This document shows positions 30,848-60,263 of a DNA stretch of 64,000 nucleotides, piece by piece (position 1 is the stretch's first letter; each line of letters starts with the position of its first letter). Where the stretch lies: contig CAYREQ010000004.1 of assembly GCA_964423445.1 (NCBI GenBank), forward strand, positions 2,700 to 66,699, written 5' to 3'. Both the position numbers and the translations under genes were made by a program. The DNA comes from an uncultured Candidatus Saccharibacteria bacterium. Its GTDB lineage: Bacteria > Patescibacteriota > Minisyncoccia > Phycocordibacterales > UBA9973. Below the pieces are notes generated by a model. It saw nothing but the letters and a program-made list of their open reading frames with translations, was not told the origin of the DNA and made no database searches.

Positions 30848-30848
30848 G

Positions 30849-30919
30849 TCGGGCTGCTGGGAATCGAACCCAGTCTAAACGCTCCCAAAGCGCTTGTACT
30901 ACCGGTATACTACAGCCCG
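30849..30919 (-). tRNA. tRNA-Pro (anticodon UGG)
   Basis: Acceptor CGGGCTG/CAGCCCG, anticodon loop TTTGGGA and T-arm GGGTTCGATTCCC. Confidence 0.7.
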
Positions 30920-30982
30920 AATATTTAAAAACAATGTACTAAAGTTATATTATACTAGCGTTTAAACGCTCTCAAAATGAAG

Positions 30983-31013
30983 GCGCTTGTACTACCGGTA
31001 TACTACAGCCCGA
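30983..31013 (-). repeat. 31-nt exact copy of the 5' portion of tRNA-Pro (pseudo-tRNA fragment), 63 bp from the gene
   Basis: GCGCTTGTACTACCGGTATACTACAGCCCGA occurs at 30890-30920 (inside the tRNA) and again at 30983-31013. The second copy does not fold as a tRNA. Confidence 0.6.
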
Positions 31014-31027
31014 ATTCCCCCACTATA

Positions 31028-49320: not shown

Positions 49321-50802
49321 ATGATTTCTAGTAATACAACAAGTAAAAAAATAATATCTACTCTTCTGGTAATTTTTATTTTATTACCAAATGTATTATT
49401 TATACTTCCACAAAAAGCAATTGCTCAAGAAGAAGCTGTTACAGTGCCTGTCAGCGACATCGGTAAACCTGCAGTAGTCACTGCAAAATCGAGCTTTTGG
49501 AGTAGAATTTTAAATGGCACCACAGCAGCAAAGACCAGTGTTTCAGCTGGAACAGATCTAAAGCAATGGGCATTGAAAATAGCCGAGGAAGCTCTGCGTA
49601 ACCTGGCGAAAAAGTTTTTACAAAAACTGACTGAAAGTACTGTAAATTGGATAAACGAGGGTTTCCATGGAGCCCCACTTTTTGTGGAAAATCCTAAATC
49701 TTTTTTCAAAGATATCGCAAAATATGAAATTAAAACTTTGGTAAGTAGAATCGGCTATGATAATAGAAATTTCCCATTTGGAAAAGGTTTTATTATGAGT
49801 GCGATCCAAGGATATAAAAATACTTTTGAGAGAAATGCTCAATACTCTCTGAGTAAAGTCATAAGTGACCAACAATTTTTAAATAATTATAGAAATGATT
49901 TTAATGTCGGTGGCTGGGATGGTTTTCTACTAAACACTCAGTTCCCGCAAAATAACCCGATAGGTTCACAGCTTATGTATTCTGATTACTTGGCGAGCAA
50001 GCTTCCAGAAGTTGATACAGCAAAAAATAAAATACAAAAAACCTTAGAACAAGGACAGGGTTTTCTCTCTCCTCAGACATGTCCATCAAATCCTAAATAC
50101 AATAATGCTGTAAATGAATTCAAAAGACCTACTTTTAAACCTACGACCCCCCCACCTGTATATCAAGATTGTTCTCAATATGAAGAAGAAGGGAACACTG
50201 CAGACCTTGCAATATGTGAAAGGGCTAACGCAGCACTAGAAGAAGCATATAATTTAGATGTCGGCAGTGAAAGATTATTGTGGAATGAAAAAAACTTTTG
50301 TCCAGGTGGACTAGTGGCTACTACTCCTGGCTCAGTGGTGGCAAATCAAATAATGACTGCTACTTCATCTGCTTTTAGGCAAGGGGAGCTCGGTATGGCC
50401 ATGGGAAATAGCTTGTCTGCAATCTTTGATGCATTACTCAATCAATTTATGTCTAAAGGTTTGACTGCAATAAAAAGTAAAATTTATGATAAACCAAAAG
50501 AGGGTGATAGAGACGACTTTAGTTATTATGGAAACACTTTTGGTGATGTACAGACGACAAATAGTGGTACTAAATTTATTTGGAGTCAGATAAAAGATCC
50601 AGTAAATGATATAGACAAGCTAGAATATGACGGAACAAAGTTTATAGATAAAGAAGGATTAAAAGAACCTGCTGATCCTTTATCCTGCCCGGCAGGACAG
50701 ACAGGCACACCTCCGAATTGTATAAAAGTATTACCGACTAGCTGTGACTTAGGCGATGGTACTCTTCGTCCAATCCCAGAATGCAACCCAACAATAAATT
50801 AA
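49321..50802 (+). CDS. Secreted/cell-surface protein
   Basis: Signal anchor IISTLLVIFILLPNVLFILP, then a 460-aa domain with conserved Cys pairs and no TM helices. Confidence 0.5.
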   Translation: MISSNTTSKKIISTLLVIFILLPNVLFILPQKAIAQEEAVTVPVSDIGKPAVVTAKSSFWSRILNGTTAAKTSVSAGTDLKQWALKIAEEALRNLAKKFLQKLTESTVNWINEGFHGAPLFVENPKSFFKDIAKYEIKTLVSRIGYDNRNFPFGKGFIMSAIQGYKNTFERNAQYSLSKVISDQQFLNNYRNDFNVGGWDGFLLNTQFPQNNPIGSQLMYSDYLASKLPEVDTAKNKIQKTLEQGQGFLSPQTCPSNPKYNNAVNEFKRPTFKPTTPPPVYQDCSQYEEEGNTADLAICERANAALEEAYNLDVGSERLLWNEKNFCPGGLVATTPGSVVANQIMTATSSAFRQGELGMAMGNSLSAIFDALLNQFMSKGLTAIKSKIYDKPKEGDRDDFSYYGNTFGDVQTTNSGTKFIWSQIKDPVNDIDKLEYDGTKFIDKEGLKEPADPLSCPAGQTGTPPNCIKVLPTSCDLGDGTLRPIPECNPTIN

Positions 50803-50803
50803 A

Positions 50804-53674
50804 ATGAAGAAATTTTTTACATACATATTAATATTTGTCACAGTATTACAGCTAGTTATTCCACCTAGTCCTGCGCAAGCAGAAAGCCCTACGGATAAAG
50901 GTGATTGTGCTATTCCTGGAGCCACAATGACAAACGTCACTAGGGAATTTTGTAAAAATAGTGGAGGTACATTTAAAGCCTTTGGATCTACTACTACACC
51001 AGTCTCTACAGAAAGCCCTACTGATAAAGGTGATTGTGCTATTCCTGGAGCCACAATGACAAACGTCACTAGGGAATTTTGTAAAAATAGTGGAGGTACA
51101 TTTAAAGCCTTTGGATCTACTACTACAGGTGGACCGGGCGGGACCCTTGGAGATACAGGCTCAGCTGCGGCTCCTGGAGACGCTCCAAAAGATCCAAATG
51201 CTGATATTTTTGGAAGCTGTAGTGGATGGAATCTTGTTGTAGCTTGGAACGTCACTGGTTGTGTGGTAAGAGCATTTCATCTTGTATTTATGGTATTACC
51301 ATCTATGGTTTTATACCTTACAGCATATATATTCAATGCTATGCTCGCCCTAACTCTCGGTACTGTTTTATATAAAAATGGTTTTTTACCAGAAGCTTGG
51401 AGAATAGTGCGAGACTTTTCAAACATCTTCTTTATACTGGTTTTATTATATATATCTATAAAAATGATTTTAGGCTTGGGTGGAGCTGAAGTAAAAAAGA
51501 TGATAGCCCAAGTCATAGTGGCTGCTCTACTCATAAATTTTTCTATGTTTATGACTCAGGTAGTCATAGACGCTTCAAACATGCTTGCTTTAATTTTTTA
51601 TAATAAAATCCAAGTCACTTCTCAAACATACACCCCTTTTATAAGTACAAAAAATGGTGTACAAGATAAAGATATCGCTGGAGCCATCGCTTCTGGTTTT
51701 AACCCAGCTAAATTTATCAACCCTGCTGATGTGGCAGAAATTAATAATAAAGCAGTAACTAGTGGAGGTTTATTTTATGACCTAAAAAATATAGCTAAGG
51801 ACCCAAGTACAACAATAAACCCACTCAGACCTCTCGACAACACTACAACTAATTTAAAAATAGGTTGGGCTGTAGCAAAAAGTGCTCTAACTGGTGGTGG
51901 AGATGAAAAAACTTTTCCACCATCTATCGCACTGGCAATAATTTTTACAGCCTGTGCGGTCTATCTCTTTGCATCATATGCATTTTTTATTGCTGGATTA
52001 GCATTTATTGGTAGATTGATAGAGCTCTGGATGCTGATTATATTTTCACCTTTTGCTTTTATGTCTTTATCTGTACCAAAATTGAAAGGCATAGAATATC
52101 TGGGATGGGATGCATGGCTAAAACGGCTACTTGCAGTGGCTTTTATGGCTCCTGTTTTCATGTTCTTCCTACTATTAATATCAAAACTTGTACAAATAAA
52201 TATATTCAAAGGAATGGAAAATATTCCAGGGCAAACTCCAATTACAATTCCTCATGTACTTGTAATGCTTATAATTCCAGCAATTATATATATCAGTCTT
52301 CTTTGGAAAGCTGTGGACTATGCAAAAAAGGGAGCAGGAGAATTCGGCTCTGCCATAATTAAATACGGACAAATGGCAGCTGTGGCAGTGGGTGGACTAG
52401 CTGTGGGTGCAGCTACGGGTGGAGTAGGATTGGCTGCTAGTTCCACCCTTGGAAGCCTTGCTGCAAAGACAGCAAGCAGCAGCTCTCTACTTAAGGCATC
52501 AACTCAAAAAGGAATAGGTGGATGGGCAGCAAGAATGACTCTAAAGGGTGCAGAGTATGGAGCAAATGCATCCTTTGATGCTAGAAAACTTCCTGGTGTT
52601 GGTGGAATGATGAAAAAAATGGGTATGAAGACAGAATCTTCTACTATTACAAAAGCTTTGGGTCTAAGTAGTGCTGGTGGATATGAAGGCAGAAAGAAGA
52701 GAATGGAGGAAGAAAGAGAGAAGAGAGAAAAACAATTAAAAGTAAGAGGTAGTGACCCACTAATGCATGAACTACACAAAGAACAAGAAAATCTACAAAG
52801 TGCAGAAAATAAAGTGGCTGAATGTTTTAGACAAATAGATGACGAGATTGAAACATGGGAATCAAAGAAACGTCAAGCTGTAAATGGTAGTGCTGATGAT
52901 GTAAAAGCTGCAGAAAAATTAAAAGAATTAAATGAACTAAAAGGGTCTATAAAAGCTGGTGTTATGCCTATGGTGCTTAAATACACCGAGGGGGCATTTA
53001 AGGGTGAATTTAAAGACGCAAATGGCAACTATAACACAATGAAGGAAAAAGATCAGACTGGTAAAATGATTGATATTTATGCTACAAGCAATGGCAAGAT
53101 AGCTGAAAAGGCTGTTGAAGAATATGAAAACAAAGTAAAAGATGGTGAAAAGACTGAGACAGAAGCAGAAAATGCATTAACGGAGGCTCAGCTAGCTATA
53201 AAGGCAATAAAAGAATCTGAAGTGAAAGCTAAAGAAGCAGCAGATGCAAGAAAAAAAGCAGAAGAAGAACAATTGGCAAGACCTACAAGTACTGATGCAA
53301 ACAATGCCCTAAAAACTGCAATTGAAAATGAGACAAAAGCTCTTAAAGAATTAGAAGATAACAAGGAAAAAGCACCAAAATTAGATATAAAAGAACTAAT
53401 AAAAAACCATGAATCAGCAAAAACTAAACTTTCTGAACTTCGTTCTAAGCTAGAAATAACAAAAGAAATAACAAAAGGTGGAACTGGAGCATCTATAAAA
53501 GAAATGAAAAATATAATAATACCTGGAATTAAAACAAAAATAAGAGATATTGAAAACAGCTGGAAATGGGCGGAAGCTGATAGGATTGAGGGTAAAATGC
53601 TATTTAAAAATATTAACCATGAATTAGCACACAAAATGAGAATGGCCGCAGATGTAACAGAAGTAAAACATTAA
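50804..53674 (+). CDS. VirB6/TrbL-like polytopic membrane protein with N-terminal tandem Cys-loop repeats and a C-terminal coiled-coil extension
   Basis: Signal peptide, two 43-aa repeats (ESPTDKGDCAIPGATMTNVTREFCKNSGGTFKAFGSTTT), then about 8 TM helices in a roughly 400-aa core, then a roughly 400-aa K/E-rich coiled coil. This is the architecture of TrbL/VirB6-family proteins. Confidence 0.5.
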   Translation: MKKFFTYILIFVTVLQLVIPPSPAQAESPTDKGDCAIPGATMTNVTREFCKNSGGTFKAFGSTTTPVSTESPTDKGDCAIPGATMTNVTREFCKNSGGTFKAFGSTTTGGPGGTLGDTGSAAAPGDAPKDPNADIFGSCSGWNLVVAWNVTGCVVRAFHLVFMVLPSMVLYLTAYIFNAMLALTLGTVLYKNGFLPEAWRIVRDFSNIFFILVLLYISIKMILGLGGAEVKKMIAQVIVAALLINFSMFMTQVVIDASNMLALIFYNKIQVTSQTYTPFISTKNGVQDKDIAGAIASGFNPAKFINPADVAEINNKAVTSGGLFYDLKNIAKDPSTTINPLRPLDNTTTNLKIGWAVAKSALTGGGDEKTFPPSIALAIIFTACAVYLFASYAFFIAGLAFIGRLIELWMLIIFSPFAFMSLSVPKLKGIEYLGWDAWLKRLLAVAFMAPVFMFFLLLISKLVQINIFKGMENIPGQTPITIPHVLVMLIIPAIIYISLLWKAVDYAKKGAGEFGSAIIKYGQMAAVAVGGLAVGAATGGVGLAASSTLGSLAAKTASSSSLLKASTQKGIGGWAARMTLKGAEYGANASFDARKLPGVGGMMKKMGMKTESSTITKALGLSSAGGYEGRKKRMEEEREKREKQLKVRGSDPLMHELHKEQENLQSAENKVAECFRQIDDEIETWESKKRQAVNGSADDVKAAEKLKELNELKGSIKAGVMPMVLKYTEGAFKGEFKDANGNYNTMKEKDQTGKMIDIYATSNGKIAEKAVEEYENKVKDGEKTETEAENALTEAQLAIKAIKESEVKAKEAADARKKAEEEQLARPTSTDANNALKTAIENETKALKELEDNKEKAPKLDIKELIKNHESAKTKLSELRSKLEITKEITKGGTGASIKEMKNIIIPGIKTKIRDIENSWKWAEADRIEGKMLFKNINHELAHKMRMAADVTEVKH
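50882..51127 (+). repeat. Intragenic tandem duplication; 129-bp unit, two copies, one mismatch
   Basis: Direct comparison: 50882-51010 and 51011-51127 differ at a single base (acggat versus actgat) and encode two 43-aa Cys-loop modules. Confidence 0.85.
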
Positions 53675-53684
53675 AATTTATTTT

Positions 53685-54182
53685 ATGACTGAAGAACTAA
53701 AAAAAACAACAGAAGAAGAAATAGCGAGACTTCCTAAAGAAATAGGGGAGGCTGTAAATAATTCTAATTGGGTAAAAATCACGGAAGAAATAGGCAAAAA
53801 ATATTCTTTTTCAGAAAAAGAGATTACAAATCTACAAGCAGAAACTGCAATAATTTTAGTAGGAGCTGAGGATTCAGATTTATTTGCAGAAAATATTGAA
53901 AATAATGTAAGAACAACAAAAGAAAAAGCTGAAAAAATTTCAGCTGAAATATTTGAAAAAATATTTATTCCTATAAATGGTATTATTGAGGGAAAAATTA
54001 AAAATAATATGCAAGGAAAAGAAATGAACTGGCAACAATCTATAAACTTTATACTTTCTGGTGGAAATTATTCTGTTCTACTAGAAAACCCAACTCATAA
54101 AGTTTCCACAGAACCACAAAAAGTAAGTAGTGTTTTGGGTGCAAAAAGTATGCAGGATATAAAAGACAAATTGGTGAATTAA
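53685..54182 (+). CDS. Hypothetical protein (T4SS-like cluster)
   Basis: 165-aa ORF co-directional with the cluster and separated by 10 nt. No TM helix. Confidence 0.4.
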   Translation: MTEELKKTTEEEIARLPKEIGEAVNNSNWVKITEEIGKKYSFSEKEITNLQAETAIILVGAEDSDLFAENIENNVRTTKEKAEKISAEIFEKIFIPINGIIEGKIKNNMQGKEMNWQQSINFILSGGNYSVLLENPTHKVSTEPQKVSSVLGAKSMQDIKDKLVN

Positions 54183-54979: not shown

Positions 54980-55408
54980 ATGCAATTTAAAGTTCCACAA
55001 TTTTTAGAAATAGAAGACAAAATTTTTGGCCCATTTACTTTTAAAGAGTTTATCTATTTGGTAGGAGGTGGGGGCATGTGTTTTGTTATTTATAAGTTAT
55101 TGGGTTTATTTTGGGGAGCAATACCTATACTATTAGTAGGTGGTTTTGCTTGTATGCTTACTTTTTACAGGCCAAACAATAAACCCTTTTTAAATATGAT
55201 AGAAGCTGGTTTTAATTTTACCTTGCAGAGCAAACTATATATCTGGAAGAAACGAAAGATAAAAAATGATACTAAATCAACTTCAAATATAGTGAGTGAG
55301 GATAAAAATTCAGCTATGGCGGAAAGTGGTATGCGGTTGAGCGGAAACAAACTTCGAGATTTGGCATGGAGTTTGGATGTTTTAGATTTGAAAAAAGAGG
55401 GGAATTAG
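54980..55408 (+). CDS. Small two-TM membrane protein, PrgI/VirB3-like candidate
   Basis: N-terminal FGPFTFKEFIYLVGGGG followed by two adjacent TM helices, located upstream of VirB4 as VirB3/PrgI usually is. Confidence 0.4.
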   Translation: MQFKVPQFLEIEDKIFGPFTFKEFIYLVGGGGMCFVIYKLLGLFWGAIPILLVGGFACMLTFYRPNNKPFLNMIEAGFNFTLQSKLYIWKKRKIKNDTKSTSNIVSEDKNSAMAESGMRLSGNKLRDLAWSLDVLDLKKEGN

Positions 55409-55475
55409 ACTTTAGATTTTAGTATTATACTAGAACCTAAAGTCTAGCGCCTAAGGCCTAGAAAAAAATAAATAC

Positions 55476-56114
55476 ATGGCATTGAACGCAAAAGCAACTC
55501 AAGAGTTTGTACCTATTAAAGAGGTACGTGATGGCATAATCGTCTTAAAAGACGGGGGTCTTCGTGCTATCATCTTGGCAAATTCTGTAAACCTTTCCCT
55601 AAAATCAAGCGATGAACAAAGAGCTACTATACTCCAATTTCAAAACTTCTTAAACACTTTAGATTTTTCTATACAAATATCTGTACAGTCTAGAAGATTA
55701 GACATCCGACCTTACCTTTTGCTTTTAGAGAATAGAATAAAAGTTCAAAATGAACCACTCTTAAAACTACAAACAAAAGAATATATGAATTTTATAATGA
55801 GTTTTACTGAATCAGTAAACATAATGACAAAAAGTTTCTTTATTGTAGTACCTTATAGTCACACTGTCTTAAAATCTGATTCTGGTTTTTTGGGAAAAAT
55901 CTTTAAAAGAAAAAGTAAAGAAGATAAGCAAGCCGAAAAAGAAGAAGACTTTGAAGAAAAAAAATCACAGCTCGAGCAGAGAGTAGGAGTAATACAGCAA
56001 GGACTTTCTCGTTGTGGTATAAAATCAGCAAAACTAGGCACAGAGGAAGTGGTAGAAGTATTCTATAAAGTTTTCAACCCTGGAGAAGTAGAAGGTAAAA
56101 TAAAATTAGAATAA
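55476..56114 (+). CDS. Hypothetical protein with VirB4-N-terminal-domain-like motifs
   Basis: IKEVRDGIIVLKDGGLRAIILANSVNLSL...LDFSIQISVQSRRLDIRPYL resembles the conserved CagE/TrbE/VirB4 N-terminal region. Its stop lies 5 nt before the VirB4 start. Confidence 0.35.
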   Translation: MALNAKATQEFVPIKEVRDGIIVLKDGGLRAIILANSVNLSLKSSDEQRATILQFQNFLNTLDFSIQISVQSRRLDIRPYLLLLENRIKVQNEPLLKLQTKEYMNFIMSFTESVNIMTKSFFIVVPYSHTVLKSDSGFLGKIFKRKSKEDKQAEKEEDFEEKKSQLEQRVGVIQQGLSRCGIKSAKLGTEEVVEVFYKVFNPGEVEGKIKLE

Positions 56115-56118
56115 ATAT

Positions 56119-57981
56119 ATGATGGATTTTTTTAAAAACTTATTTGGTAGAAAAAATAAACTCGGTGGAGGTGCTATTTCTGCTGGAACACAAGCTTCTA
56201 TCATGCCAGTATTGCCAGGGGAGATATATGAATCAGCAAATATTGAACTCCAAGACATCATCGCTCCTTCTGCGTTAAAAATTGAATCAAAATCCATAAA
56301 CCTAGGTGAAAAAATTGCTCGTACTTTTTTTATAATTTCTTACCCGAGATTTTTAACTGACAATTGGTTTTCTCCAATCATAAATTTGGATAAAGTTTTT
56401 GATATTTCTATATTTGTCCACCCGATTGATACCTCATTGGCACTCCGACAATTTCAGAAAAAGGTGGCGGAAGTTCAAAGTCAGATAAATGTAAGGGAGA
56501 AAAAAGGTATGGTAAGGGATCCTATGCTAGATACTGCATATCAAGATTTGGAAGGTTTGCGTGATAACCTGATTCAAGCCCAAGAAAAAATGTTTGATAT
56601 GGGTATATATATCACAATATATGCCGACACAGAACTCGAGCTCTTTAAAGTTGAAAATGAAATAAAATCTATGCTCGAATCTAGATTAATCTATATAAAG
56701 CCTGCTTTATTCCAACAAGAAGAAGGCTTTAAAAGCATAATCCCTTTAAATACAGACCTTTTAAATATTCACCAAAAATTAAACTCCGAGCCTTTGTCTA
56801 GTATTTTTCCTTTTGTATCTTTTGACCTGACTTCTGATAACGGAATTTTATATGGAATAAACAGGCACAATTCTAGTTTGGTAATATTTGATAGATTTTC
56901 TCTTGAAAACTACAACTCTGTGACCTTTGCAAAATCTGGTTCTGGAAAATCTTATTGTACAAAATTGGAAATATTGAGATCTCTCATGTTTGATATTGAT
57001 GTGATGGTAATAGACCCTGAGAGGGAATATGAATTTTTATCTGAGGCTGTCGGTGGAAGATATTTCAACATTTCTCTTTCCTCTGATCACCACATGAACC
57101 CTTTTGATCTACCTATGCCGCGTGAAGATGAAACTGCAGAAGACGTACTTCGTTCAAATATCATAAACCTAGTAGGTCTATTCCGATTGATGCTAGGTGG
57201 TCTTACTCCAGAAGAAGATTCGATAGTAGATCGAGCTATCTCTGAGACATATGCAATGAAAGACATCACTCCTGATTCTGATTTTTCCAATATTGAACCA
57301 CCATTATTATCTGACTTTGAAATGGTACTTTCAGGCATGGAAGGATCTGATGCGATAATCTCGCGATTGGCAAAATACACAAAAGGTTCTTGGTCTACAT
57401 TTTTAAACAGACCTAGTAACGTAGACATAAATAAAAAATTCGTAGTATTTTCTATACGAGATATGGAAGACGAGCTAAAACCTGTAGCTATGTATATCAT
57501 CATGCACTATATCTGGAATGCTATTAGAAAAAACCTAAAAAAGCGCTTACTTGTAGTGGACGAAGCTTGGTGGATGATGAAATCCGAAGATACTGCTTCT
57601 TTCCTTTATTCAATGGCAAAAAGAGGAAGAAAATATTATCTAGGTCTAGCTACTATTACTCAAGACGCTGCAGATTTCATGAAATCTCCTTATGGTATTC
57701 CTATTGTCACAAACTCTTCAATACAAATTCTCCTAAAACAATCACCGACTACAATAGATGTATTGCAAAAAACCTTTAGCCTGACTGACGAAGAAAAATA
57801 TTTACTTCTAGAGTCTGGAGTAGGGGAAGGCATCTTTTTTGCTGGATTAAAACACGTAGCTATTAAGATAGTAGCTTCATACACAGAAGACCAAATCATA
57901 ACTTCTGATCCATCCCAAATACTTTCAAATAGAAAAGCAAAGGAAGATTATGAGACCACTGTGAGTGAGGGAAGATTGTAA
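56119..57981 (+). CDS. virB4: VirB4/TrbE/CagE-family type IV secretion ATPase (Gram-positive PrgJ/TcpF-like)
   Basis: The N-terminal IAPSALKIESKSINLGEKIARTFFIISYPRF...SPIINLD pattern, Walker A FAKSGSGKSY and Walker B LLVVDEAWWMM. Confidence 0.8.
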   Translation: MMDFFKNLFGRKNKLGGGAISAGTQASIMPVLPGEIYESANIELQDIIAPSALKIESKSINLGEKIARTFFIISYPRFLTDNWFSPIINLDKVFDISIFVHPIDTSLALRQFQKKVAEVQSQINVREKKGMVRDPMLDTAYQDLEGLRDNLIQAQEKMFDMGIYITIYADTELELFKVENEIKSMLESRLIYIKPALFQQEEGFKSIIPLNTDLLNIHQKLNSEPLSSIFPFVSFDLTSDNGILYGINRHNSSLVIFDRFSLENYNSVTFAKSGSGKSYCTKLEILRSLMFDIDVMVIDPEREYEFLSEAVGGRYFNISLSSDHHMNPFDLPMPREDETAEDVLRSNIINLVGLFRLMLGGLTPEEDSIVDRAISETYAMKDITPDSDFSNIEPPLLSDFEMVLSGMEGSDAIISRLAKYTKGSWSTFLNRPSNVDINKKFVVFSIRDMEDELKPVAMYIIMHYIWNAIRKNLKKRLLVVDEAWWMMKSEDTASFLYSMAKRGRKYYLGLATITQDAADFMKSPYGIPIVTNSSIQILLKQSPTTIDVLQKTFSLTDEEKYLLLESGVGEGIFFAGLKHVAIKIVASYTEDQIITSDPSQILSNRKAKEDYETTVSEGRL

Positions 57982-58008: not shown

Positions 58009-59019
58009 ATGTATAATTATATTATGAACAAAGGGTATATGAAATTTAAATTATTAACGTTGTCACTAATGATAATTTCATTGTTTTCTTTACCTTTTAC
58101 AGCAAGTGCTGTGTCTCCAAGTAGCATTAATGTAGATATAGTGCCACCAACCCCAACACCAGGAGAATCTACCACAATAACCTTGAGTAGTTATGGAAAC
58201 AATCTAGATAGTGCTTTAATATCATGGTTTGTCGCTGGTAAAAAAGTAACTTCTAGTGTTGGTATGAAATCATTTTCAATAAATGCTCCAAATATGGGAT
58301 CAGAAACAAGTGTAAAAGCTGTAATAGATTTACCTGATGGCCCAATAACAAAAACAATTTTAATAAGACCAAATATTATGGTGTTGCTCTGGCAGGCTAG
58401 TGATTCTTATGTACCACCATTTTATCGTGGTAAAGCATTGCCTACAGAAGAAAGCACTATAAAAGTAGTGGCTATGCCTGAAGTAAAAACCAAATTAGGT
58501 CCAGTTAATCCAAAAAATATGATTTATTCTTGGCAATTAAATTATGCAAGCGATGGAGAAAGTACTGGTTATGGGAAAAATACTTTTACCTATACAAATG
58601 ACTACTTGGAAGACTTTGAAAATATTTCTGCTACAGCTACGACCATAGATGGACAGTACTCATCACAAGCAAATATAAATATAAAGCCTCGAGACCCAAA
58701 AATAGTATTTTATAAAAATGATGCAAGTATGGGTATCTTATGGGAACAGGCTCTAAAAGATGGGCATAAGATAGTGGGTGATGAAGTTATCGTAGCTTCA
58801 CCATATTTCCTTTCACCAAAAGAAACTTGGAGTCCAAATCTAACCTGGAATTGGTTTTTAAATGATTCTCTCACAAATAATACATTGAAGTATAGAAAAA
58901 ATTGGATACCTTTAAAGGTGTCTGGTACTGATACCGGTTCAGCTACTTTAAAATTACAAATAGAAAATAAATATCAACTATTTGGAAACATAAGTAAAGA
59001 AATAAGTTTGGAATTTTAA
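58009..59019 (+). CDS. Secreted hypothetical protein (T4SS-like cluster)
   Basis: Signal peptide FKLLTLSLMIISLFSLPFTASA and a domain with beta-rich composition. Confidence 0.45.
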   Translation: MYNYIMNKGYMKFKLLTLSLMIISLFSLPFTASAVSPSSINVDIVPPTPTPGESTTITLSSYGNNLDSALISWFVAGKKVTSSVGMKSFSINAPNMGSETSVKAVIDLPDGPITKTILIRPNIMVLLWQASDSYVPPFYRGKALPTEESTIKVVAMPEVKTKLGPVNPKNMIYSWQLNYASDGESTGYGKNTFTYTNDYLEDFENISATATTIDGQYSSQANINIKPRDPKIVFYKNDASMGILWEQALKDGHKIVGDEVIVASPYFLSPKETWSPNLTWNWFLNDSLTNNTLKYRKNWIPLKVSGTDTGSATLKLQIENKYQLFGNISKEISLEF

Positions 59020-60263
59020 TGATGAAAAAATTTTTACCTTTTATCTTAATACTGGTGATAATCTCTGGTTTTTTTAGTATTACTTCAAAAGTAAGTGCTG
59101 AAGATAAAGGTACTTGTTATAAAAATGCAGGAGAAGTAGTCGGCAATGATGTAACAGAAAAAAAATGTAAAGACGCCCCACCTCTTGGTCTTGGTGGGGA
59201 AGCATGGGGTCCAAATACCACCACTCCACCAGGAGGTGGAGGCAAGCAAACCAATGAAGAGAAATATAGGGCTTGTATAGCAGATGGTGGCTCAGAAGAT
59301 GATTGTAGAAGTTATGTGTTAGCGAGCGATGGTAGCTACCATCTTCTCCAACCATTACCCTGCAAAGCTGATGAACCTAGTTGTGAAGATGGGAAACTTA
59401 CAACTTTTGATCCAGATGGTACAGGAAAACTAGGAGAATACTTGAACTTAATGATAAATCTATTTATAGGTTTATGTGCTGTGACAGCTGTAGTAATGAT
59501 AGTAATGGGAGGTATAGAATATAGTACTAGTGATTTAGTGTCTGGTAAGGCTGCAGCTAAAGATAGAATACAAAATGCTATCTTGGGATTACTATTAGCT
59601 TTATGTTCTTGGCTTATACTTAATACTATCAATCCTGATTTACTTAATACTGAGATTGATATTGGTGGGGCTAGTATTACTTCATACGGAGAAATAACAT
59701 TGGAAGCATTGCCTGATGGTACTTATAGTAGTACTGGAGGAGCTGGAGCCGGGGTGATAGGAAGTGGACAATGTAAAGTACAAACAAACCCAAACAATGC
59801 TTGTAGTCCACAAAAATTGTCTAGTTGTTTTAGAGATAGAGTAAACGAAGCCTCTAGGGTGTGTAGTGTAGAAAGTGCGGGAGGGCAAACAGGAGTAGAA
59901 AGTGGTAGTGATAAATTAGCAGACGGTCGTTCATATTCTGTGGGTCTTTGGCAAATTAATTTAACAGTTCATCAAGTTAGAGACCCAAATACTGGGCAAA
60001 TGCTAGATTGCCCTGCAGCATTTACTGGCAATCGTCGTGGATGTGGTAGGGGAACAGTAGTACCAAGTGGCCCAAATGTTGGACATTGCTCATTTTCAGT
60101 TAGAGATATAAATCTATATAATAGATGTGTGGCGGCTGCAAAAAACCCTACAAGCAATACTGAGGCTGCTTGTAAAATTTACAATCAAACAGGCCATAGT
60201 TTCCAGCCTTGGGGCTGGACAGCTAAAAAAGCTTGCAAGCCTCCAATTCCTTATAAATTATAA
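59019..60263 (+). CDS. Secreted Cys-rich protein with a two-TM hairpin and a C-terminal lysozyme-like (GH23/SLT-type) domain; VirB1/PrgK-like candidate
   Basis: Signal peptide, a Cys-rich N-terminal region, the hairpin LNLMINLFIGLCAVTAVVMIVMGG...AILGLLLALCSWLILNTI, then ESAGGQTGVESGSD...SYSVGLWQINL (the ES...GLxQ pattern of lytic transglycosylases). Confidence 0.5.
   Translation: MMKKFLPFILILVIISGFFSITSKVSAEDKGTCYKNAGEVVGNDVTEKKCKDAPPLGLGGEAWGPNTTTPPGGGGKQTNEEKYRACIADGGSEDDCRSYVLASDGSYHLLQPLPCKADEPSCEDGKLTTFDPDGTGKLGEYLNLMINLFIGLCAVTAVVMIVMGGIEYSTSDLVSGKAAAKDRIQNAILGLLLALCSWLILNTINPDLLNTEIDIGGASITSYGEITLEALPDGTYSSTGGAGAGVIGSGQCKVQTNPNNACSPQKLSSCFRDRVNEASRVCSVESAGGQTGVESGSDKLADGRSYSVGLWQINLTVHQVRDPNTGQMLDCPAAFTGNRRGCGRGTVVPSGPNVGHCSFSVRDINLYNRCVAAAKNPTSNTEAACKIYNQTGHSFQPWGWTAKKACKPPIPYKL

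Follow-up and report, generated by a model that had tools for sequence, protein, structure and literature searches.

A probable recent in-frame duplication of a predicted exported cysteine-loop mini-domain in the hypervariable cassette of a VirB6-position protein of a Patescibacteria type IV secretion system

The window analyzed here, a stretch of 64,000 nucleotides of contig CAYREQ010000004.1 from an uncultured Candidatus Saccharibacteria bacterium (G+C content 34.5%), carries at positions 50804–53674 a gene that occupies the place of virB6 within a type IV secretion system (T4SS) cluster and encodes a polytopic membrane protein of 956 amino acids, recognized by its open reading frame (ORF), by its 334 homologues and by the helical transmembrane (TM) bundle predicted for it by AlphaFold2 (AF2). 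The subject of this study is a tandem repeat located near the 5′ end of this gene. All positions are those of the window and all features lie on the plus strand unless otherwise stated.

Tandem Repeats Finder (TRF) places the repeat at 50880–51127 (period 129, 1.9 copies, 99% matches, score 489), and a base-by-base check of the register indicates that every base i from 50880 to 50998 is identical to base i + 129, the sole exception being 50893. The repeat consists of two 119-nt copies, 50880–50998 and 51009–51127, which amount to 1.92 units, are in frame with each other and match at 118 of 119 positions, an agreement that cannot be due to chance. The single mismatch, G at 50893 as opposed to T at 51022, is synonymous (ACG and ACT, both Thr). 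The two copies are separated by a unique 10-nt junction (50999–51008, CCAGTCTCTA) that occurs only once in the 64-kb window, breaks the period-129 register and is not matched by the 10 nt found 3′ of copy 2 (51128–51137). At the boundaries, GCGCAAG of the signal peptide is followed by CAGAAAGC, the copies end with ACTACTACA and GGTGGACC comes directly after copy 2; the repeat search detected no other long direct repeat within the window. The sequence-only reading, in which the element had been described as a 129-bp duplication differing at one base, was right in considering it near-perfect, in frame and recent, but the element is not made of two complete 129-bp units, consisting instead of 119-nt copies and of the unique 10 nt. 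An origin of the junction through one-step duplication at the CAG microhomologies of the copy ends was considered and discarded, since it predicts a period of 117 and not of 129.

At the protein level both copies encode the same 39-amino acid module, ESPTDKGDCAIPGATMTNVTREFCKNSGGTFKAFGSTTT, with a C-x14-C spacing. Module 1 corresponds to residues 27–65 (50882–50998; Cys35 and Cys50) and module 2 to residues 70–108 (51011–51127; Cys78 and Cys93), and the layout is module, four-codon PVST linker (50999–51010, whose codons contain the junction) and module, with a protein period of 43 residues. The 956-residue ORF, the module present twice at this period, its cysteine spacing and the existence of a 168-residue antisense ORF (50749–51255, minus strand), all claimed at the outset, agree with the sequence and with the ORF list. 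The antisense ORF, which mirrors the repeat and overlaps a sense gene having 334 homologues, is most likely non-coding, as had been proposed, but the repeat alone does not account for it, because a comparable antisense ORF lies over the unrelated cassette of the closest relative (locus L001). We reason that its presence is best explained by composition, in that Thr, Gly, Pro and Ala sense codons cannot yield antisense stops.

The 956-residue protein begins with a Sec signal peptide (residues 1–26, 50804–50881, MKKFFTYILIFVTVLQLVIPPSPAQA) identified from sequence and hydropathy, 24 of its 26 residues being identical in P0002, the homologue encoded by L001. This signal peptide (MKKFF...PPSPAQA) would be cleaved after AQA and before ESP, so that module 1 begins at residue 1 of the mature protein. 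Module 2 is followed by a linker rich in Gly, Pro, Ala and Thr (residues 109–138, 51128–51217), predicted to be disordered on the basis of its composition and of a predicted local distance difference test (pLDDT) value below 50 at residues 106–128, and by a pre-membrane pair of cysteines, C139 and C153 (51218–51262), each with a conservation of 90% or more in alignments A1 and A4, the commonest spacing of the pair within the family being 10 residues. Then come the conserved TM core (approximately residues 150–545, 51251–52438), in which AF2 and hydropathy recognize 7–8 hydrophobic helices and which contains the invariant motifs RDxSNxFF and INFSxF, and a fast-evolving, Lys/Glu-rich and probably cytoplasmic C-terminal tail (52439–53674; 77 K+R and 70 D+E in 413 residues). 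Since a protein is considered polytopic when it has at least five TM helices, the 7–8 segments given by hydropathy qualify this one as such. The AF2 model of residues 1–600, built on a 67-sequence alignment, is a helical membrane bundle with a mean pLDDT of 76.9 and long helices at residues 150–185, 194–223, 227–268, 373–413, 435–464, 482–510 and 512–537.

In the same model module 1 consists of a hairpin (strands 32–37 and 40–46), a helix (47–52) and a further strand (56–59), with a block-mean pLDDT of 81–83; the hairpin–helix–strand pattern is repeated at residues 75–102, the block means of the modules ranging overall from 81 to 89, whereas the linkers (62–71 and 106–128) remain below 50. A separate run on a single module, based on the alignment of 62 homologue modules, yielded the same fold with a mean pLDDT of 83.7 and core blocks of 92, so that the structure prediction suggested by the sequence-only reading gives a hairpin–helix–strand mini-domain in both runs. 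In the 62-module alignment only the two cysteines are invariant and the consensus is G-x-C-x(12-22)-T-x3-C-x3-G-x-W. No curated Pfam model matches the module, either in the 956-residue protein or in the module-rich proteins P0124, P0126, P0127 and P0129, these four giving only weak, sub-threshold matches to CFSR and DUF333.

The number of cysteines between the signal peptide and the first TM helix is even in 109 of the 112 homologues endowed with a signal peptide, being 0 in 2 of these, 2 in 11, 4 in 48, 6 in 39, 8 in 8 and 10 in 1. These even counts fit the presence of the pre-membrane pair (C139 and C153) plus zero to four disulfide modules and, together with the signal peptide, argue that the module region is exported and oxidized. 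We infer that the modules are displayed outside the membrane on flexible linkers rich in Thr, Ser, Gly and Pro. The earlier proposal of two identical, extracytoplasmic Cys-loop modules is supported both by the signal peptide, cleaved between AQA and E, according to ordinary topology rules, and by the even cysteine counts. As a separate observation, N-x-S/T sequons (NVT) are found at residues 43–45 and 86–88 of the modules and at residues 148–150, before C153; in 25 of the 154 modules of the family a sequon precedes the second cysteine by 1–5 residues, a density some three times that of the background, and it may serve for glycosylation or cap a helix. With so few modules carrying it, the sequon was dropped as a defining motif of the module.

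The repeat lies almost entirely within a segment in which the gene differs from that of its closest relative. With respect to L001, the blastn alignment stops at 50880, the first base of the repeat, and restarts at 51182, a result with which the MAFFT alignment concurs; the repeat fills 247 of the 301 nt (82%) of the hypervariable island so defined (50881–51181). The nucleotide identity is approximately 93% up to base 50880, and the DNA flanking the island is 84–87% identical. The proteins of the neighboring genes are 98% (TrsD), 92% (PrgI), 84%, 81% and 72% identical, while the 956-residue protein and P0002 share only 51% overall identity and their comparison reveals a mosaic, with 83% identity in residues 1–30, 10–37% in residues 31–121, 77–100% in residues 151–510 and 10–53% in the tail. 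The cassette of L001 contains three modules, the first weakly similar to the module of the window and the other two forming a 59%-identical pair of their own. The tail constitutes a second fast-evolving island, blastn finding no alignment with L001 between 52294 and 53766 (from about residue 500 to residue 956).

The same type of variation is seen throughout the family, in which the number of modules ranges from 0 to 4 among the 112 homologues, 39 of which have two. The modules were counted by cysteine-pair parsing and with a 62-module profile, these having replaced a phmmer search of the module against the homologue N-termini that proved too insensitive for divergent modules. Of the close pairs, in which the TM cores of two homologues share 85% identity or more, two hardly differ over their whole length and six have diverged ectodomains, whose identity is 19–25% in five cases and 55% in one; the module number is unequal in all six (2/1, 1/2, 2/3, 2/3, 4/1 and 2/1). 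The clearest example is that of loci L081 and L082 (P0045 and P0047), which are 98.3% identical in nucleotide sequence over the core and the downstream genes but have an unalignable 350-nt cassette with two modules and one module, respectively; the upstream secreted-protein gene is 76% identical. In this pair a tail segment has also been replaced (L081, 3839–4227). A divergence so sharp, next to DNA that has hardly changed, suggests either that the cassette was replaced by recombination or that diversifying selection has been very strong. The suggestion that the exposed end of the apparatus might vary between strains finds support across the family, in the 0–4 modules, in the unequal numbers of the diverged close pairs and in three independent duplications. 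Between close relatives, what changes is chiefly the whole cassette, replaced by unalignable sequence, and not the presence or absence of single units.

These additional duplications were revealed by searching the module profile against 1.84 billion representatives and by scanning 80 metagenome loci. They are found in the same region of homologous genes in L083 (period 138, 1.9 copies, 98% identity), L127 (period 120, ~1.9 copies, 94% identity) and L146 (period 111, ~1.9 copies, 89% identity), are independent of that of the window and have in all cases the arrangement module–linker–module. The synonymous/non-synonymous codon differences between the copies are 1/0 in the window, 3/0, 4/2 and, in the oldest pair, 0/7; small as these numbers are, they suggest that the youngest pairs may be under constraint at the protein level and that the oldest has diverged in protein sequence. 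The identity between modules of the same protein is 100% in the window, 59%, 53% and 50% in the next cases and 32% as a median, the median between different proteins being 24%. With about four recent duplications in approximately 165 loci, one of them found by a search biased toward multi-copy proteins, the duplication of a module with its linker is, as judged from the loci compared, apparently a recurring and occasional route of array growth. A repeat of another kind was found in L137 and L138 (1060–1755), in the gene upstream of the VirB6-position gene, which has short repeats rich in Pro, Thr and Tyr and a 264-bp tandem duplication, 78% identical, encoding a different and larger domain with four cysteines.

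The module is not restricted to the VirB6-position protein. Its profile yields 28 matches at E ≤ 0.001, among which are homologues of the secreted 493-residue protein encoded immediately upstream (49321–50802, ORF): P0129, P0137, P0138, P0142 and P0146, 41–46% identical over approximately 400 residues, have C-terminal arrays of 3–5 modules, and the fragment P0124 was placed with them by eye only. The 493-residue protein of the window ends in just two short cysteine loops, C-x10-C and C-x12-C. Homologues of a pilin/lysozyme-like protein (P0133 and P0144) are also matched, and among the ORFs of the window the protein of this type has, right after its signal peptide, one module (~59100–59216, EDKGTCYKNAGEVVGNDVTEKKCKDAPPLGLGGEAW) with E 0.0018. 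By eye, the signal peptide of this protein, MMKKFLPFILILVIISGFF..., is much like that of the VirB6-position family, in which it is unusually conserved (consensus MKKxxPYILILIILVGLF). Other proteins matched lie outside this family; they include P0123, with 8 modules and a sub-threshold match to PGF-CTERM, and P0125, a fusion with a ClpP-type protease having 2 modules, both from outside the phylum, and P0128, a signal-peptide protein with four perfect 58-residue repeats. Overall, the module looks like a widespread mini-domain for which there is no curated model.

The pilin/lysozyme-like protein (59019–60263; Pfam T4SS_pilin, E 1.4e-7; SLT_3, E 4.3e-5) belongs to the T4SS cluster, which further comprises genes for a PrgI/VirB3-like protein (54980–55408; Pfam PF12666, E 1.7e-7, above the gathering score), a TrsD-like protein resembling the N-terminal part of VirB4 (55476–56114; NCBIfam VirB4_plasma, E 7.4e-11, and TrsD, E 7.8e-6, both below the curated cut-offs) and a VirB4-like ATPase (56119–57981; Pfam TraG P-loop, E 1.9e-25, and AAA_10, E 1.1e-10). 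Two small genes lie between the gene of the 956-residue protein and the PrgI/VirB3, TrsD and VirB4 genes. The upstream neighbors are housekeeping genes, ksgA (RrnaAD) and that of a UvrD helicase, the cluster is chromosomal, and the gene order is the same in L001, L081 and L082. VirB4, TrsD, PrgI/VirB3 and a VirB2-like pilin occur here together on the chromosome, which is how a Patescibacteria T4SS is defined (PMC12102498). Within the cluster, the 165-residue protein encoded at 53685–54182 is fast-evolving, being 54% identical to its L001 orthologue while its neighbors are 84–98% identical, and a hairpin is located between the prgI-like and trsD-like genes (55405–55447; 19-bp stem, −24.7 kcal/mol, z = −4.6, with none of 200 shuffles as stable). 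The hairpin is kept as a palindrome in L001 (95%, reverse-strand blastn match) and, not being followed by a U-run, is not a canonical terminator. Elsewhere in the window a 36-nt direct repeat, 97% identical (30887–30922 and 30980–31015), overlaps the 5′ half of tRNA-Pro (30848–30919, minus strand) and may be a tRNA fragment or the remnant of an integration or duplication.

As to the nature of the 956-residue protein, the definition "VirB6/TrbL-like" given by the sequence-only reading is one of gene position, inside the T4SS cluster and near virB3 and virB4, and of architecture, and sequence comparisons brought out no VirB6, TrbL or PrgH signature. The protein has no Pfam match at E ≤ 0.1 and, with the threshold relaxed to E ≤ 1, TrbL (PF04610) matches none of the 54 homologues searched; aligned by hhalign with PrgH of pCF10, the family profile reaches a probability of 0.3%; tblastn against 72,556 plasmids gives no match and, when compared with the PDB sequences, the family profile finds no T4SS protein, only coiled-coil noise on the tail. 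The NCBIfam match to MMCAP2_0566, a conjugal-transfer membrane family of a Mycoplasma integrative and conjugative element, is sub-threshold (E 0.006, 15.8 bits against a cut-off of 90), and the PDB entries ranked highest by Foldseek are the DotA protochannel of Legionella (E 0.08) and TrwI/VirB6 of R388 (E 0.54), both weak matches with low TM-scores. The protein is likely a functional analogue of VirB6 and possibly a homologue. The detection of VirB6 in Patescibacteria is described as patchy and this is ascribed to extreme divergence (PMC12102498); where named, all the 334 homologues found here belong to Patescibacteria (Paceibacterota, Nomurabacteria and Parcubacteria).

The explanation that best accommodates these data, to which we attribute a probability of about 0.7, is that an exported mini-domain underwent a genuine and very recent duplication, in frame, within the hypervariable cassette of a VirB6-position protein of a Patescibacteria T4SS. 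The array would grow when one module is duplicated with its linker by illegitimate or homologous recombination; the copies would afterwards diverge, or else recombination, with its anchors in the conserved sequences of the signal peptide and of the pre-membrane segment, would exchange the whole cassette. What would probably follow is that the exposed end of the apparatus changes in length, valency and surface; this end probably contacts the host cell or the cell envelope. Furthermore, the two 119-bp copies would offer a substrate for unequal recombination, so that variants with one and three copies would be expected in the population, and none was observed here.

Several points weigh against this explanation. 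The two-copy state is known from one assembled contig and no copy-number polymorphism was seen; indeed, no other copy of the gene or of the cassette was found by exact-protein look-up, by 32-mer scans of genome and metagenome contigs, in the 90% cluster or by a cassette-only protein search. TRF detected no comparable long-period repeat in 80 species-representative loci, from which it follows that the duplications are occasional and not constant. The 10-nt junction, with the four linker codons, is not explained by simple one-step slippage. The TM count given by hydropathy is ambiguous (7 or 8), so that the topology beyond the module region does not follow from it alone. Sequence comparison detects no homology to VirB6, TrbL or PrgH, at which only the fold hints, and comparison of the module model with the PDB by Foldseek returned nothing below E 6, so that contact with the host is a role that we only infer.

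The near-identity of the two modules could also have arisen without a recent duplication, had an ancient two-module layout been homogenized by intragenic gene conversion (concerted evolution). That two modules are common in the family, that L001 has at least three, the first of which is weakly homologous to that of the window, that the junction lies outside the repeat, as if only the bodies of the modules had been converted, and that the differences between young copies are mostly synonymous are all compatible with such a history; yet at either end of the 119-nt copies a single base separates 100% identity from a random level, the flanking homology that conversion between diverged modules would need is absent, the modules of most two-module homologues are too dissimilar (~32% identity) to initiate conversion and the graded series of pairs (99, 98, 94 and 89% at the nucleotide level, 59% at the amino acid level) fits duplication followed by divergence. 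Homogenization is accordingly considered improbable, and only slightly more credit than is due to a dedicated high-frequency switching locus should be given to it. The latter would generate programmed size variation by slipped-strand mispairing or RecA-dependent unequal crossing-over, and near-identical 119-bp direct repeats with a spacer of only 10 nt are of the type on which unequal recombination classically acts; the product would moreover be extracellular and the number of modules differs among the family members. On the other hand, slipped-strand switching typically involves units of 1–10 nt, the copies are only two and do not form a long homogeneous array, the species-representative loci lack such a repeat and close relatives have unrelated cassettes instead of unit multiples.

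The possibility that a short-read assembler created or mis-counted the duplication in a metagenome-assembled contig has to be taken into account because the only record of the protein is one contig of 67,911 bp, with no independent copy, and because repeats near the read length are prone to collapse or expansion. It is nevertheless very improbable, considering that the repeat is interior to the window and in frame, that the unique junction and the synonymous single-nucleotide difference tell the two copies apart, that three independent assemblies from other samples display the module–linker–module arrangement in homologous genes and that a two-module ectodomain with six cysteines is normal for the family; it is possible that a longer array was collapsed during assembly. 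Practically negligible is the hypothesis that the two copies are the template and variable repeats of a diversity-generating retroelement. These elements are frequent in Patescibacteria, where they target surface proteins, and the region is hypervariable, but both copies are in frame within one ORF, their only mismatch is a synonymous G/T difference and not an adenine-specific one, no reverse-transcriptase domain was found in the 17 ORFs scanned around the locus and, from one relative to another, it is the length of the island and its module count that change, not adenine-templated positions.

Recent duplication of the module being the preferred explanation, a broader proposal that goes beyond it is more speculative and, in our opinion, unlikely, if less so than any of the alternatives discussed above. 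The Cys-loop modules might be interchangeable host-recognition or envelope-spanning elements of the T4SS, present on at least three of its components (the VirB6-position protein, the pilin/lysozyme-like protein and the upstream secreted protein) and diversified by duplication and cassette exchange; if so, the cassette would help set the host surface with which the epibiont engages, and the window would have captured one step of the process, with a duplication less than 1% diverged. Whatever its function may be, the fast-evolving part of a T4SS is here pinned to a short, sharply bounded and predicted-exported cassette of an un-curated disulfide module. A cassette that differs beside flanks about 98% identical is a marker for the strain-level typing of uncultivated bacteria. 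Southlakia epibionticum, the only Patescibacterium amenable to genetic manipulation, is reported to require its T4SS for epibiotic growth (PMC10633639; PMC12857230), and the cassette, which may be a site of host contact, represents a testable handle on how this essential apparatus of the epibionts meets the outside. As a mutation the duplication is nothing out of the ordinary; it is of value as a dated example of array growth.

Repeats of this kind are found in other exposed proteins. The alpha C and M proteins of streptococci are wall-anchored adhesins with many in-frame, near-identical extracellular repeats whose copy-number polymorphism is documented, and in such Gram-positive surface proteins the gain and loss of repeats by recombination leads to size and antigenic variation. 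The protein of the window resembles these products of variable-number tandem repeats in having near-identical, in-frame units in a region that signal peptide and even cysteine counts indicate to be extracellular, and differs from them in that its copies are only two, belong to a membrane protein of a secretion channel and were not observed to be polymorphic.

A closer precedent is offered by VirB6-3 and VirB6-4 of Anaplasma phagocytophilum, which have in-frame tandem repeats variable in number and sequence among strains and for which surface exposure and a link to strain differences have been proposed (PMC3556328). Those repeats are C-terminal, larger (from 41-residue units to kilobase arrays), acidic and without cysteine loops, and belong to a diderm intracellular pathogen, whereas those described here are N-terminal, consist of two copies of a 39-residue disulfide module and belong to a monoderm epibiont lineage. 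In the oral Saccharibacteria (TM7), a pangenome study reports VirB6 to be clade-specific or variable at the level of gene clusters (PMC7739484). The contrast observed here between TrsD and PrgI (92–98% identity) and the 956-residue protein (51%) is of the same type, but the variation is localized in the N-terminal cassette and in the C-terminal tail, two islands on either side of a TM core that is 77–100% identical.

Finally, the T4SS of Patescibacteria (Candidate Phyla Radiation) is related, according to the study that describes it, to the conjugation machinery of monoderms (PMC12102498). The cluster of the window is like it in having PrgI/VirB3, TrsD, VirB4, a fusion of VirB2-like pilin and lysozyme-like domain and, on the upstream side of virB3, a polytopic protein, and unlike it in that the 956-residue protein escapes the VirB6, TrbL and PrgH profiles. 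A search by terms of the papers cited here on the T4SS finds no mention of the N-terminal Cys-loop cassette, of its sharp boundaries, of the presence of the module on three components or of its duplication. Variable repeats in exposed T4SS proteins were already known, and the N-terminal Cys-loop cassette with its duplication adds a further form of them.

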